This document shows positions 1,117-8,986 of a stretch of DNA of 18,167 nt, in pieces. A program made the translations under genes and the position numbers. Each line of letters opens with the position of its first letter. Positions within the stretch are counted from its first letter, which is position 1. Source of the DNA: a virus (taxonomy: Duplodnaviria; Heunggongvirae; Uroviricota; Caudoviricetes); the IMG/VR virus record IMGVR_UViG_2657245521_000006. The stretch is one strand, 5' to 3'. Under the pieces are notes generated by a model. That model was not told where the DNA came from, made no database searches, and was given only the letters and a program-made list of their open reading frames with translations.

Positions 1117-1730
1117 TGAACCAATCACAATTTCAGCAGGCGGCTGGTATCAGCGCCGGGCTTTCTGCGCGCTGGTTTCCGCACATTGACGCGGCAATGA
1201 AAGAGTTTGGCATTACAGCTACGAACGATCTGGCTATGTTCATCGCCCAGGTTGGGCATGAGTCTGCTGGCTTTACCTCGCTGGTGGAAAGCTTCAACTA
1301 CTCGGTAGAGGGGCTGAAGAAAACCTTTGGTAAACGGCTTACTCCTTATCAGTGTGAAATGCTGGGTCGTGTCGATGGTAAGCAGGTGGCCCACCAGCCG
1401 CAAATAGCCAATCTGGTTTATGGTGACCGCATGGGGAATAACAGCCAGGGTGACGGCTGGAAATATCGCGGTCGCGGCCTGCTGCAAATCACGGGTCGTG
1501 AGAACTACACCAAATGCGGCACGGCGCTGAAACTTGACCTTATCAGTACGCCAGAATTGCTAACGCAAGAGCGACATGCGGCTCGTTCGGCTGCGTGGTA
1601 CTTCACGTTACGCGGTTGCCTGATGTATTCGGGTGACGTGGCACGCGTTACGCAGATTATTAACGGCGGACAGAACGGCATTAAAGACCGCCGTGAACGT
1701 TACGCCAAAGCTAAAGCTGCACTGGTGTGA
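1116..1730 (+). CDS. Phage endolysin, glycoside hydrolase family 19 (chitinase-like lysozyme)
   Basis: 204 aa; motif FIAQVGHESAGF...LLQITGRENY typical of GH19 phage lysins (from memory); position inside lysis cassette. Confidence 0.88.
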   Translation: MNQSQFQQAAGISAGLSARWFPHIDAAMKEFGITATNDLAMFIAQVGHESAGFTSLVESFNYSVEGLKKTFGKRLTPYQCEMLGRVDGKQVAHQPQIANLVYGDRMGNNSQGDGWKYRGRGLLQITGRENYTKCGTALKLDLISTPELLTQERHAARSAAWYFTLRGCLMYSGDVARVTQIINGGQNGIKDRRERYAKAKAALV

Positions 1731-1737
1731 GGTCAGT

Positions 1738-2007
1738 ATGGGGCTTGAAATGATTATCGGCCTGGTTGTTGCTGTGCTGGCTGCAATTGCAGGTGCTTTT
1801 GGGCTGGGCAAATCACGCGGTACCAGTATCGCTGAAACAAAAGCGGACCAACAACGCACTGAAGAACGTGCAATAGCTATTGAAGCGGTTGCAGAACGCC
1901 GGGTAGAAACAACAAAAGGAGCCAGGGATGTACAACAGACTGTTAACCATATGCCTGATGACGCTGCTGATCGCGAGCTGCGCAAAAACTGGACACGTAA
2001 GGATTGA
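1738..2007 (+). CDS. i-spanin (Rz-like inner-membrane spanin)
   Basis: ATG 1738 preceded by GAGG; N-terminal TM helix MIIGLVVAVLAAIAGAFGL then charged helical periplasmic region; o-spanin gene embedded at its 3' end. Confidence 0.7.
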   Translation: MGLEMIIGLVVAVLAAIAGAFGLGKSRGTSIAETKADQQRTEERAIAIEAVAERRVETTKGARDVQQTVNHMPDDAADRELRKNWTRKD

Positions 2008-2149
2008 GGTTATTGACACCGGCTGCGATTGGGTAAAACCCATCTACGGCACTGCTCATGATTGGGAAGTGCTGGACAGGCAGACCAAGAAAGACATTCT
2101 TATGCATAACAAAGTGTGGATGTCAAACTGTGGCTCTATAACTTATTGA
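1928..2149 (+). CDS. o-spanin (Rz1-like outer-membrane lipoprotein), overlapped architecture
   Basis: Starts inside the i-spanin in another frame with perfect SD AAGGAG 8 nt upstream; lipobox L-I-A-S-C (Cys18); extends past the i-spanin stop. Confidence 0.65.
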   Translation: MYNRLLTICLMTLLIASCAKTGHVRIEVIDTGCDWVKPIYGTAHDWEVLDRQTKKDILMHNKVWMSNCGSITY

Positions 2150-2799
2150 TTTTGTTTTTTGTTGTCTACCATATCAGGCAATGTGAAGGCATATAGAAGA
2201 AATACTTCGGTGAAACCAATCATTTCTTGAGCATCTTCTTTTGAAAATTCTTCATCAGAATGAACTGCTCCATTGGAATCGATTCGAACTATATGTGCCC
2301 ATTCCCTCATTTGATCTGTAATCAGTCCCTTAGCATGCAACATAGAAATCCGTTTAACCAATTTTTCATCTTTTGAGTCATTTCCCAGTAACTCCCGTGT
2401 AGCAATGTCCAAGACTTTACGGCAAAGCATAACGGATGTGTCGAAACGACAGCGCCCTAAGTTGTCTTTTGCTTCTATGAAAGCCATAGCAGCACGTGGC
2501 GGAGTGTGTTCGGGGGCGTTAAGGAGGGTGGGTTTCGGGATGATATCAATCAACTGGTACTCAGTATTTCCAGGAATGATTACGTTTACATCATTATTTT
2601 GCCTAGATTTTGCACGAGGTAAATAACCACCGGGATTATTCATTTTTACAATAGCAATACCTGATTGAAAACAGCTTCGACAACAAAATGCAATATTAAC
2701 TAAAGGCCCGGCGTTGATACGCAGTTCTGCCCATCCTTCAAGGACAGCATTTTCCCTCAGACAATGTGGGCAAGTGATATCGAAAGTGAGAATTCCCAT
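2143..2799 (-). CDS. Zinc-ribbon plus DUF4145-like helical domain protein (about 218 aa); candidate defence/abortive-infection-type cargo
   Basis: Minus ORF; start taken at ATG 2799-2797 with GGAG 7 nt upstream (MGILTFDITCPHC...); N-terminal CxxC...CCxxC; C-terminal ...HIVRIDSNGAVHSDEEFSKEDAQEMIGFTEVFLLYAF matches my memory of the DUF4145 signature; AT-rich codon usage unlike phage core genes. Confidence 0.7.
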   Translation of the reverse strand: MGILTFDITCPHCLRENAVLEGWAELRINAGPLVNIAFCCRSCFQSGIAIVKMNNPGGYLPRAKSRQNNDVNVIIPGNTEYQLIDIIPKPTLLNAPEHTPPRAAMAFIEAKDNLGRCRFDTSVMLCRKVLDIATRELLGNDSKDEKLVKRISMLHAKGLITDQMREWAHIVRIDSNGAVHSDEEFSKEDAQEMIGFTEVFLLYAFTLPDMVDNKKQNQ

Positions 2800-3479
2800 G
2801 ACTCTACTCCATACATTAAAAGAAATTGAAAATGAATTACACAATGCACAACGACCTGAGTCTACACTCCTTCAACGATATGAAGTATCGAATGAGATTA
2901 AAAAAAAGGAGTTTGTAGTCGCTTTGATCGGTAAACTGATAGAATTGGACCGCCGTCTCTATGTCACATCATTGAAGCCTTAGTTTCAATTTTACCGATT
3001 TATCGCTTAAGGGGTAGGACTTCAACACTACTAAGTGAGCATTGCAGCAGGCATTCAGGGGAATGCTGTGACAGTAGTTAGCTAGGGTAAACCGTTTGCG
3101 CCTGGGGATTTTACTTTGCGACGGAAAATTAAAAAACTATATGATTTCTTATCCCACTAGGATGTCTGCGGACTACTACTGACTGTTTAGGCTATTACGA
3201 GGGGCTCAAACTCAACGTCTGGCATCAACGCAGAACTGAAAAAGTCGCCATGAATGTGGTTACGGTATTTGGTGGGATATAAACGTACCTTCATTTCTAA
3301 GCTTGATAATCACCTTTGTCCGAATTGCCTACGCGATAGTCATGTAGTTTTAGTCATAACCGTTTACCCTATTGATGTCAAGATAAATTGGATAACACTG
3401 ATGAATCGAACCTCTAAATCCTTTGATGGGCCACTCATAGCTGACTGGTTCAAAAAAGTGTTATCAATGGTATGATAAG

Positions 3480-3509
3480 TTGAGATGAAAGGTGTAAATG
3501 AACTATAAT
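3480..3509 (+). promoter_or_regulatory. Candidate sigma70 promoter for the two-gene cargo operon (-35 TTGAGA, 18-nt spacer, -10 TATAAT)
   Basis: TTGAGA at 3480-3485 and TATAAT at 3504-3509, about 35 nt upstream of ATG 3545. Confidence 0.4.
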
Positions 3510-3544
3510 AATTCAACAGTTAATCTGAGAAAAATGGATTATGT

Positions 3545-3814
3545 ATGTCGAATGTAAAAAAAATAGATGCTATAGTTCAAAATTTATTTGAATTCAGAGA
3601 TGCTACAGGTGAACTTACGGATAAAAATATTGTTTTAATACAAAAAATCATAACGAACTTACCTGACTATGCTGGTAAGGATCCATATGAATTTTATTCA
3701 TCATTTTCTGAAGATATTAATGAGTCGCTCAAAGCAATTGCCAATTATCATAAGGCACATGCTAAATACATTAATGCCCTCGATAAATTAGCAGAGCTTA
3801 GGTCGGAGGGGTAA
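3545..3814 (+). CDS. Hypothetical small acidic helical protein (89 aa), first gene of the cargo operon
   Basis: ORF in very AT-rich DNA; followed 2 nt later by the coupled second gene; no family recognised. Confidence 0.6.
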   Translation: MSNVKKIDAIVQNLFEFRDATGELTDKNIVLIQKIITNLPDYAGKDPYEFYSSFSEDINESLKAIANYHKAHAKYINALDKLAELRSEG

Positions 3815-3816
3815 TA

Positions 3817-4194
3817 ATGGCTACGGAAGATATTCAGGCTTTGTTATCTAAAGTTAATGCGTTAAGATTTGAAGATAAAAGAATAGAGAAGGAAACAGGA
3901 GAGATTGAAAATGAAATTCAGGCTCAATTTCTTCGTGATGGTAAAACAAGGAGTACATTAACCATAACATTTATGAGAGGCTTTTTTGGTCTTATCGTTT
4001 TTTCTTTTATATTTGTGATAGTTTATAACTATTGCGCAGTGCAATGGGTACTTCAATTACAAAGCAAAGGGCTCATGGAGGCTTCTAAAAGTATCGCACT
4101 ACTTGAGTTAGATAAGGTGTTATCTATTATGGTTAGTGCGTTAGGAACATCTCTTGGGTTTATAATTGGCTATTATTTTAAAGACAAAAAATAA
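3817..4194 (+). CDS. Hypothetical membrane protein (125 aa; cytoplasmic coiled N-terminus plus two predicted TM helices), second gene of the cargo operon
   Basis: Strong SD GGAGGGG before ATG 3817; hydrophobic segments LTITFMRGFFGLIVFSFIFVIVY and VLSIMVSALGTSLGFIIGYYF; terminator downstream. Confidence 0.65.
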   Translation: MATEDIQALLSKVNALRFEDKRIEKETGEIENEIQAQFLRDGKTRSTLTITFMRGFFGLIVFSFIFVIVYNYCAVQWVLQLQSKGLMEASKSIALLELDKVLSIMVSALGTSLGFIIGYYFKDKK

Positions 4195-4269
4195 ATAATT
4201 TAATTTTACATTGCTATTTATGTTTTGCTTTTAAGATTTTTAACTTTCTAGATGTAGAGTTATTGTTAA

Positions 4270-4297
4270 AGCACTGGTATTTGCCAGTGCTTTTTTA
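4270..4297 (+). terminator. Rho-independent terminator closing the cargo operon
   Basis: Stem AGCACTGG / CCAGTGCT with loop TATTTG, followed by TTTTTT. Confidence 0.55.
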
Positions 4298-4695
4298 TTA
4301 AAATCCGCGGATTAATGACGGCAATCATGAATACTCCTCCAAAGACTGATCCAACGATACGGGTGTATAAGTCACACTTGTTTAATCTGTGATTGATGGC
4401 ACTATAATTTATGTTGCACAACATAAACTGCCGATGGAGGGAATTGAGTGCTGAGCATGTCAGACATAAGTGTGTTGTCGAAGGTCTCCTCAGGCATGGT
4501 TTCTGCATAACGTCGACACTTGAAAGCCTCCATAATGACAATAAAGTATAAGTATTATCATTATTAATTGTCACTTGCCGTTGCGACATGCTTGGGCGGC
4601 GACCGCCTAAGTTCTCTTTATAAATGAGAAGTTCCCGCTAGCGACCGTTTCTGATTCCTTTTTTTCTACTAAGTTTGTATCAAATAAACAGGATA

Positions 4696-5064
4696 ATGCC
4701 GATGCCAGCACGAGCAAAGCGTCCATGCCGGCACAAGGGCTGTGCGGCAGTTACCAACGATGCCAGTGGCTATTGTGATCAACACCGACAGCGGCATGCT
4801 GGTGATGGCTGGCGTAACTACCAGGCAGGAAAGAGCAGGCAGGAACGTGGATATGGGCGGACCTGGGAAATTAAACGGGTGCGTATCCTTCAGCGTGATA
4901 AGTACCTGTGTCAGAACCATCGCCGGCAGAAGATTGCAAAAAAGGCGACCAGCGTTGACCACATCATTCCAAAAGCTCATGGCGGTACTGATGACGATTT
5001 CAATCTTGAGTCGTTGTGCTGGGACTGCCACAGAGCGAAGACGGCAAGAGAGCGTATCCGATGA
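4696..5064 (+). CDS. HNH endonuclease, phage packaging-associated (HK97 gp74-like position)
   Basis: C-terminal HNH motif ...DHIIPKAHGGTDDDFNLESLCWDCHRAK; Cys/His-rich N-terminus; just upstream of terminase genes; start ambiguous between ATG 4696 and 4702 (SD AGGA at 4689-4692 favours 4702). Confidence 0.85.
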   Translation: MPMPARAKRPCRHKGCAAVTNDASGYCDQHRQRHAGDGWRNYQAGKSRQERGYGRTWEIKRVRILQRDKYLCQNHRRQKIAKKATSVDHIIPKAHGGTDDDFNLESLCWDCHRAKTARERIR

Positions 5065-7554: not shown

Positions 7555-7727
7555 TCACTCTTTTAAGTTTTATTATCGGCCTCACCGGAGCCGGGTTAGT
7601 GTCTGCCGGTGCCTGGCTTATTTCACCTGCAGCCGGGCTTATTACTGGCGGTTCAATCTGCCTGCTGTGGTCATTTTTAATCGCGAAATCGATGTCCGCC
7701 AGCGTAATTAAATCAGGGGGTGAATAA
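7548..7727 (+). CDS. Small two-TM membrane protein (59 aa), translationally coupled between terminase and portal; not in the supplied ORF track
   Basis: Hand translation MLITLLSFIIGLTGAGLVSAGAWLISPAAGLITGGSICLLWSFLIAKSMSASVIKSGGE; ATG 7548 overlaps the terminase stop and its TAA overlaps portal ATG 7727 (TAATG). Confidence 0.4.
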   Translation: MLITLLSFIIGLTGAGLVSAGAWLISPAAGLITGGSICLLWSFLIAKSMSASVIKSGGE

Positions 7728-8986
7728 TGTTCATTCCCCAGATGTTTCGGGGTAAATCTCAGTCTGGTGGTGGTTTCTGGCAGGCGATGCTGGGTGGGGT
7801 GAGTTCCAGCCAGAGCAAGGCGGGGATCATTATCACTCCTGAAACCGCACTGGCGTTATCGGCGGTCCGGGCATGCGTAACGCTTCTGGCAGAATCGGTG
7901 GCGCAGTTGCCGTGTGAACTTTACAGGCGAGGCGCTAACGGAGGCCGTGAACGGGCGACTGACCACCCTGTTTATGATCTGATTCATTCCCAGCCCAACA
8001 AAAAAGACACCTCGTTTGAATACTTTGAGCAGCAACAGGGCCTGCTCGGGCTGGAGGGAAATTGCTACTCGATCATCGACAGGGACGGGAAAGGGTATCC
8101 CCGCGAATTAATCCCGGTTAATCCCAAAAAAGTCATCGTCCTGAAAGGGCCTGACGGGATGCCCTATTATGAACTCCCCGAAATTGGCGAAACGTTGCCA
8201 ATGCGCATGATGCATCATGTGAAGGTTTTCTCGCTGGATGGTTATATCGGTAGCTCTCCGATCCAGACGAACGCAGACGTTCTTGGGCTGAACCTGGCCG
8301 TTGAAGAGCATGCTTCTCAGGTTTTTCGCCGTGGCACAACGATGAGCGGCGTTATTGAGCGACCAAAGGAGGCTCCGACAATAAAGAACCAGGAGAAGAT
8401 TGACCAACTTCTTGCTAAATGGACGGATCGTTATTCCGGTATGCGTAATGCCTTTTCTGTCGCATTGCTTCAGGAAGGGATGAGCTACAAACAGCTATCT
8501 CAGGATAATGAGAAAGCGCAGCTGTTGCAGTCCCGCCAGTGGGGCGTGGAGGAAGTTTGCCGACTCTATAAAATCCCGCCTCATATGGTGCAGATGCTGG
8601 CGAAAGCCACAAATAACAACATTGAGCATCAGGGGCTGCAGTTCGTCATGTATACGCTTTTAGCCTGGCTGAAGCGTCATGAAGGCGCATTAATGCGCGA
8701 TCTGCTTTTACCCAGCGAGCGCGGTAGTCTGTACATTGAATTCAATGTATCCGGCCTGCTGCGCGGGGATCAGAAGTCACGCTATGAATCTTATGCGCTG
8801 GGCCGTCAGTGGGGCTGGTTATCGGTTAATGACATTCGCCGCATGGAGAACCTTCCTCCCATCGCCGGAGGGGACAAATACCTGACGCCTCTGAATATGG
8901 TCGACAGTAAACAAATCTTACCTGGCAATAACGCGCCAACAGCTAAACAACTGGCAGAAATCGAAACTATTCTGGCCAGAGCCTGA
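7727..8986 (+). CDS. Portal protein (HK97-family-like)
   Basis: 419 aa directly after terminase; sequence character of HK97-type portals (from memory). Confidence 0.9.
   Translation: MFIPQMFRGKSQSGGGFWQAMLGGVSSSQSKAGIIITPETALALSAVRACVTLLAESVAQLPCELYRRGANGGRERATDHPVYDLIHSQPNKKDTSFEYFEQQQGLLGLEGNCYSIIDRDGKGYPRELIPVNPKKVIVLKGPDGMPYYELPEIGETLPMRMMHHVKVFSLDGYIGSSPIQTNADVLGLNLAVEEHASQVFRRGTTMSGVIERPKEAPTIKNQEKIDQLLAKWTDRYSGMRNAFSVALLQEGMSYKQLSQDNEKAQLLQSRQWGVEEVCRLYKIPPHMVQMLAKATNNNIEHQGLQFVMYTLLAWLKRHEGALMRDLLLPSERGSLYIEFNVSGLLRGDQKSRYESYALGRQWGWLSVNDIRRMENLPPIAGGDKYLTPLNMVDSKQILPGNNAPTAKQLAEIETILARA

Follow-up and report, generated by a model that had tools for sequence, protein, structure and literature searches.

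A RAZR-like zinc-ribbon/HEPN gene, probable abortive-infection cargo of a lambdoid prophage, and its divergent small ORF

PD-T7-4 was found in a functional screen for defence in Escherichia coli, where it was described as a "Zn finger-HEPN" protein, and it is now named RAZR. This ring-activated zinc-finger RNase is a single-protein abortive-infection system (Zhang et al., Nature 2026, PMC13017515). It joins a Cys4 zinc ribbon to a DUF4145/HEPN domain, and defence needs residues R146 and H154 (PMC13017515). Twenty-four RAZR subunits assemble around rings formed either by portal or by a recombinase-like phage protein, after which RNA is cleaved non-specifically and the infection is aborted (PMC13017515). 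The zinc-finger domain, which is the most variable part of the protein, determines specificity (PMC13017515). The geometry of a phage ring can thus switch on a bacterial immune RNase. Another protein made of a zinc finger and a HEPN domain, DS-38, has been validated experimentally as a defence protein, and its zinc finger is distinct from that of PD-T7-4 (DefensePredictor preprint).

The window analyzed here is the whole of an 18,167-nucleotide stretch from a virus of the Caudoviricetes (IMG/VR record IMGVR_UViG_2657245521_000006). On its minus strand, at 2143..2799, lies a gene for a protein with a zinc ribbon and a DUF4145 (HEPN) domain. The gene probably encodes a RAZR-like abortive-infection RNase and is a "moron," cargo that a lambdoid prophage of the HK97 type carries and that is expressed in the lysogen. 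The defence reading is well supported by sequence homology, and the kind of system is already known. What is distinctive is that the clade is divergent, prophage-borne, and barely visible to the PD-T7-4 model, that its placement is universally antisense, and that a small gene lies head-to-head with the RNase gene.

The gene and its predicted domains

The open reading frame starts at an ATG at 2799, ends with a stop codon at 2143-2145, and encodes 218 aa plus the stop, as the preliminary description had claimed. An alternative TTG start upstream, at 2844, would lengthen it. The ATG at 2799 is taken as the real start because a Shine-Dalgarno GGAG serving the minus-strand gene lies 7 nt before it (2807..2810, kept in the alignment with loci L003-L007) and because the N-termini of homologues keep M-G-[ILM]-L. 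The protein is identical to WP_044690700.1, labelled "DUF4145 domain-containing protein," with records from Citrobacter braakii and E. coli. Together with this exact accession, the 146 homologues returned by the first search and a dN/dS of ~0.16 mean that it is a real gene and no chance ORF. It also matches phrog_1305 (E=2.9e-42). A megablast search against complete E. coli genomes gave nothing beyond one 89-bp match in the spanin. The minus-strand gene converges on the o-spanin (an Rz1-like lipoprotein; 1928..2149, plus strand; phrog_1275, E=1.8e-28), the final late-lysis gene. The two stops had been placed a few nucleotides apart, and they are indeed separated by a single base (2143-2145 and 2147-2149).

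AlphaFold2 models the whole protein with a pLDDT of 85 and a pTM of 0.63, with residues 4-53 as a zinc ribbon of beta strands, 61-87 as a small alpha/beta element, and 101-217 as a helical domain. The N-terminal ribbon (aa 1-53; 2641..2799, minus strand) is the presumed sensor domain. Its strands span residues 4-6, 20-27, 33-40, and 46-53 (pLDDT 85-94), and its two knuckles are C10-x2-C13 and C40-x2-C43. These belong to the Cys cluster (CPHC...CCRSC) already noticed, and the four cysteines are invariant, together with R172, N176, and H180, in 33 homologues of 45-98% identity. Among 101 diverse sequences reaching down to 23% identity, C10, C13, C43, R172, N176, and H180 are still invariant and C40 is present in at least 90%; C39, the first C of the "CC," is not conserved. 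The ribbon is followed by a clade-specific insertion and a proline-rich linker (aa 54-100; 2500..2640, minus strand), with a helix at 61-67 and strands at 73-75 and 81-87. Prolines P88, P96, and P100 of the linker are invariant in the 33 homologues.

The remainder (aa 101-218; 2146..2499, minus strand) is a predicted HEPN/DUF4145 RNase domain with a four-helix HEPN fold. The DUF4145 assignment of the preliminary description is confirmed by the PF13643 profile, which matches residues 120-198 with 42.5 bits (E=7e-11), above its gathering threshold of 23.1 bits. The motif quoted for the helical domain, HIVRIDSNGAVH, includes the invariant R172, N176, and H180. The proposed zinc-ribbon plus DUF4145 architecture stands, in the structure prediction as well as in the profiles. 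The predicted catalytic motif, R172-x3-N176-x3-H180, is encoded at 2260..2286 on the minus strand (R codon 2284-2286, H codon 2260-2262). The canonical HEPN spacing Rx4-6H is absent; the spacing here is R-x7-H, as in RAZR and in DUF4145 generally.

Other proteins with these domains differ in their company. HEPN-MNT toxins (5YEP, 7AE2/7AE6) have the canonical Rx4-6H, whereas the window gene has R-x7-H, an added zinc ribbon, and no MNT nucleotidyltransferase partner. A HEPN-MNT toxin-antitoxin system was rejected, since no MNT antitoxin is adjacent and the gene is flanked by the o-spanin gene and an ORF for a 61-aa protein lacking any Pfam domain. The same Pfam domain occurs fused to HsdR and in BxaP, in a different architecture, but there are no restriction-modification or BREX genes near the window gene. 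The restriction-modification link of DUF4145 was likewise discarded because no hsd genes lie nearby and the 218-aa protein stands alone; an NCBIfam match is weak (E=0.024).

The protein could also be taken for a phage regulator, with a ribbon that binds nucleic acid and a helical domain that is merely structural, and with no role as a nuclease or in defence. Such a role would fit the "DNA binding protein" label of phrog_1305, shared by a homologue in Shigella phage 75/02, and the resemblance of the ribbon to RPB9/TFIIS-type ribbons, which are weak matches to it (E ~0.04-0.06); matches of the RPB9 type are reported for the RAZR ribbon too. We consider it very improbable. No experimental basis was found for the label, the R, N, and H of the HEPN motif are invariant across the 101 diverse sequences, and the homologue RAZR is an RNase. 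Moreover, the gene is opposed to the phage operons, which would be unusual for a core regulator.

Kinship with RAZR

The RAZR reference used for comparison is that of E. coli UMB1727 (RRL46918.1, PDB 9Y9C), whose 219-aa sequence was pieced together from two database fragments. Among close relatives of RAZR (P0270-P0389), most database entries are only 146-166 aa long and begin at the internal Met63. The zinc-ribbon sensor domain, whose coding sequence overlaps the neighbouring integrase gene, is thus lost in automated annotation, and domain surveys will consequently under-report the zinc finger.

When PDB sequences were searched with the single sequence or with a narrow profile, RAZR was not found. 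The profile of 101 diverse members was required, and with it the top PDB match is the RAZR chain 9y9c_OA (E=5.8e-8), in an alignment that takes in the ribbon as well as the linker and HEPN domain. The same holds for profile-profile comparison by hhalign: the broad family matches the RAZR family with 98.1% probability over 172 columns (E=7.5e-14), and with only 60% (E=8e-5) when the narrow clade profile is used. In these alignments the zinc ribbon falls on RAZR residues 13-57, and P88, P96, and P100 align with P66-P79 of the short conserved linker (residues 66-79) by which RAZR couples its zinc finger to its HEPN domain, with ~30 inserted residues ahead of them in the window protein. Aligned directly by BLASTP, the window protein and RAZR are 28% identical over 151 aa, all of it within linker and HEPN domain, and R172 corresponds there to R146 and H180 to H154. 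Judged by these profiles, the window protein is homologous to RAZR/PD-T7-4 over its whole length, albeit distantly. The guess of a defence function is therefore supported more strongly than had been assumed, the protein being by sequence a distant homologue of a validated abortive-infection RNase. The preliminary description had missed the RAZR link, so the finding is also less novel than it had supposed.

The two proteins share a length of ~219 aa, the order of Cys4 zinc ribbon, proline-rich linker, and DUF4145/HEPN domain, a catalytic R-x7-H within R-x2-[GS]-N-x3-H, C-terminal helix ends that align ("ITRP"/"FTLP"), and carriage on mobile elements. They differ between ribbon and linker, where the window protein is ~30 residues longer, its residues 48-82 being left unaligned by hhalign. 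They also differ in that the residues with which RAZR contacts its trigger are not kept, and in that the inter-dimer salt bridge D179/D180/R184 is replaced by L202/Y203/L207. Their surroundings are not the same either: RAZR overlaps an integrase gene, whereas the window clade occupies slots in lambdoid prophages and usually has a small partner ORF head-to-head with it. Because of the insertion and of the unconserved contact and inter-dimer residues, the protein is best placed outside RAZR proper, on a branch of the RAZR-type superfamily (phrog_1305) that is only distantly related to it. For the same reasons, activation templated by a ring may not apply here, and with so divergent a ribbon and interface it is less certain than for RAZR itself.

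This superfamily is large, with 2,726 representatives of the architecture in a profile search at E<=1e-3. Nearly all the closest representatives are 205-230 aa long and carry CxxC...CxxC and RxxGNxxxH. When the 150 closest were screened for the RAZR landmarks (R146/H154/AGN68-70), no RAZR was found among them. Among the defence-system HMM sets, which the preliminary description had named as a check, the PADLOC model for PD-T7-4 does match the window protein, but weakly and in the HEPN part only (E=0.0023, 15.5 bits), so that a convincing full-length score is not reached; it matches 16 of the 33 clade members, the best with E=7e-6. A PD-T7-4 alignment confined to the HEPN domain is also what is described for DS-38, which, compared by description only, resembles the window protein in this pairwise behaviour and in combining HEPN with a zinc finger. 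The window clade is large and is annotated just as "DUF4145 domain-containing protein," in lambdoid prophages of Citrobacter, Escherichia, Klebsiella, Yersinia, Proteus, and others. As its PD-T7-4 scores in PADLOC are too weak for recognition, RAZR-type immunity in prophages is probably under-counted by defence-system finders.

Mobile cargo in lambdoid prophages

The genes flanking the cargo form a late region of the lambdoid/HK97 type, devoted to lysis and packaging. Two holins (462-848 and 835-1116) and a GH19 endolysin (1116-1730) precede the spanins, and beyond the cargo region come an HNH endonuclease, TerS, TerL, the portal (7727-8986), an S49 protease, the major capsid protein, and the tape measure protein. 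This head module is ~78% identical to that of Klebsiella prophages. The HNH gene (4675-5064, plus strand) is directly upstream of TerS/TerL, an arrangement that corresponds to HK97-type, HNH-assisted cos packaging; elsewhere, Nu1/gpA terminases adjoin a 98%-identical copy of the gene. That copy occupies the same place in prophages with lambda-type Nu1/gpA terminases, in one case beside a different endolysin.

A block at 1745..3057 is common to other lambdoid prophages (~85% identity by blastn against L003-L007) and comprises the 3' part of the spanin, the HEPN gene, the small ORF, and the upstream region. On one side, the lysis genes are only ~67% identical, and beyond 3057 there is no similarity. 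This end of the homology to sister prophages lies beside a short hairpin, GCATTC-AGGG-GAATGC (~3050-3065), and may mark a point at which the cargo module was joined by recombination. The gene is part of an AT-rich cargo island of 2.5 kb (2150..4650) with 31-44% GC, compared with 52-55% in the lysis genes and 47-52% in the packaging genes.

In lambda, bor and the other lambdoid "morons" are AT-rich genes between the Rz/Rz1 spanins and the packaging genes, opposed to the late operon. The window gene shares with bor this location, orientation, AT richness, and presumed expression in the lysogen. Bor is a lipoprotein, however, and has no sequence or functional kinship with the window gene.

Genomic context was surveyed in 106 loci, 95 of which were informative, with recognizable backbone neighbours. 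The nearest backbone genes are on the strand opposite to the gene in all 95. The slots are recombination-prone and differ between loci: 49 loci are in the replication/nin region and 29 between lysis and terminase genes, and in 8 only the lysis side is visible. Distant Klebsiella homologues lie between lysis and terminase genes; those of Yersinia, Providencia, and Stx phages are between replication and nin genes; and a Salmonella homologue is found between Q/RelB-YafQ and the holin. This consistent opposition, the movement between slots, and the AT-rich island support a mobile cargo transcribed independently of the late operon, and to that extent the preliminary description was right. It had also called the gene autonomously expressed, for which its orientation is the sole indication: a scan of 2800-3100, including the conserved 260 bp upstream, found no sigma-70-like site on the minus strand. 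Nor did an anchored alignment of the upstream regions reveal clear -35/-10 elements, because the coding constraint of the small ORF confounds conservation there.

An RNase next to lysis and packaging genes might instead serve the phage's own lytic programme, for instance in the turnover of host or phage transcripts, since HEPN RNases can process RNA, and would then have nothing to do with exclusion. This is highly unlikely. The gene is antisense to the lytic transcript in 95/95 informative loci, and it is dispensable and swappable, an unrelated gene taking its position in E. coli prophages with a breakpoint exactly at the start. It is also absent from most related phages, as only 12 phage records match.

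Several of the slots hold other genes of a similar kind. The gene often has a RelE/ParE or RelB/YafQ toxin-antitoxin module for a neighbour, which fits cargo; such modules directly adjoin the gene pair in prophages of the Stx type, of Salmonella, and of E. coli (at 4141-4702 in L001, 1687-2232 in L112, and 3309-4309 in L107). In Yersinia prophages L020-L022, BstA-like genes adjoin the repressor. Slots with such neighbours look like small defence clusters. In the window, an Rfam search of 1700-4800 gave no match, and some 500 bp at 2984-3479 hold neither an ORF nor an Rfam match. Directly after these comes a second, independent moron (3480-4293, plus strand, 31-35% GC). It has a near-consensus promoter, TTGAGA-18-TATAAT, at 3480-3509, a strong terminator with an 11-bp stem at 4268-4293, and between them two small ORFs at 3545-3814 (phrog_21707) and 3817-4194 (phrog_20796, with hydrophobic segments). 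Searches of 3480-4293 against PADLOC and Pfam gave no match; the unit could be a further exclusion or defence cassette expressed in the lysogen.

The divergent small ORF and a possible mechanism

What is new at this locus is a conserved, divergent partner ORF of 61 aa, whose overlap with the start codon of the RNase gene was unexpected. It spans 2798..2983 on the plus strand, including its stop (DAM44312.1), and is assigned to phrog_8371 (E=8e-6 for the window copy, down to 5.5e-56 for homologues). Both genes begin in the tetranucleotide CATG (2797..2800), in which CAT is the ATG of the minus-strand HEPN gene and ATG starts the small ORF; this sharing recurs in 74 related loci. Its protein carries the motif DRPE-x2-L-x-QRYE...ALIGK-x-IE-x-DR and has no Pfam domain; the family amounts to 61 database clusters, every one labelled "hypothetical." A tblastn search of phage records with the 61-aa protein found nothing, and HMM-based searches were needed. 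AlphaFold2 predicts a three-helix bundle (pLDDT 89.9), with which a fold search gave no informative match. The differences between copies fall mostly on third, then first, then second codon positions (3971/3121/5626 for positions 1 to 3), pN is 0.37 against a pS of 0.76, and the median dN/dS is ~0.26. The small ORF thus evolves as a protein under purifying selection.

The small ORF is paired head-to-head with the HEPN gene in 75/106 loci, in all three prophage slots and in several genera, among them Alcaligenes, a betaproteobacterium. This pairing makes it doubtful that the RNase acts as a single gene, and with the shared CATG and the purifying selection the "single-gene" label given at first cannot be considered established. 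The small ORF is always oriented with lytic transcription, and at this locus with the late operon, so that its product would appear no later than the portal.

The pair might be a two-gene toxin-antidote module, in which the HEPN RNase is the toxin and the three-helix protein its direct inhibitor. Such a module would stabilize the prophage, or permit its induction despite its own portal ring, with defence as a by-product or half the story. HEPN toxins commonly have protein antidotes, the top fold matches of the RNase are the HEPN-MNT structures 5yep and 7ae2, and the fixed pairing, selection, and lytic orientation just described would suit an antidote. Solitary copies of the small ORF in many E. 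coli prophages would suit an anti-defence gene as well. We nevertheless hold a toxin-antidote module to be unlikely. RAZR alone is non-toxic and suffices as a single gene, and the small protein has no recognizable antitoxin or MNT fold. A Klebsiella/Citrobacter clade (~46% identity) and some closer relatives are without the small ORF, and in L003-L007 it is cut to 45 aa beside a 98%-identical HEPN gene, its ATG being lost in L006. From this truncation and loss, the RNase seems to be tolerated without the small ORF. A strict toxin-antitoxin reading was downgraded because several lineages have the small ORF shortened, alone, or not at all.

For a RAZR-like abortive-infection RNase, a course of events can be proposed by analogy with the RAZR work. 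In the lysogen, the RNase would be produced but inactive. Upon infection by a second phage, the zinc ribbon would bind an abundant oligomeric phage protein, as RAZR does with portal or recombinase rings. Binding would rearrange the oligomer so that HEPN dimers make active RNase sites, and non-specific cleavage of RNA would then stop translation and abort the infection. When the host prophage itself is induced, expression is probably turned off, because its lytic transcription crosses the gene antisense. The small ORF, carried on the lytic-direction transcript, would most likely be a regulator or neutralizer tied to the switch between lysogeny and lysis, which is the weakest step of the proposal.

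An objection to this scheme is that the prophage encodes its own portal ring (7727-8986), a problem of self-activation that RAZR biology leaves unexplained. A prophage carrying a suicide RNase that senses portal must not let the portal that it makes itself trigger the enzyme. A possible answer lies in the strict antisense orientation and in the start-overlapping partner, the latter being also a possible source of natural RAZR inhibitors. More speculatively, the antisense layout and the small protein together would shield the prophage from its portal at induction. The head-to-head pair would then be a lysogeny/lysis switch, with the RNase alone made in the lysogen, and with induction both silencing the RNase by antisense transcription and expressing the 61-aa protein as an anti-RAZR factor against the prophage's own ring. 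We offer this switch tentatively and think it improbable. If it were true, RAZR-type systems would gain their first natural inhibitor in the 61-aa protein, and the copies found alone in E. coli prophages would act as independent anti-defence genes.

These solitary copies occur in a large E. coli lineage, in which the small ORF stays and the HEPN gene is replaced, the homology breaking off exactly at the shared start. In E. coli loci L107-L111 (for example, at 2199-3258 in L107), the small ORF is found without any DUF4145 gene, and an unrelated 166-aa ORF lacking a Pfam domain takes the neighbouring position. Homology to the Stx-phage pair ends exactly at the shared starts, which suggests that cassettes are exchanged at this point.
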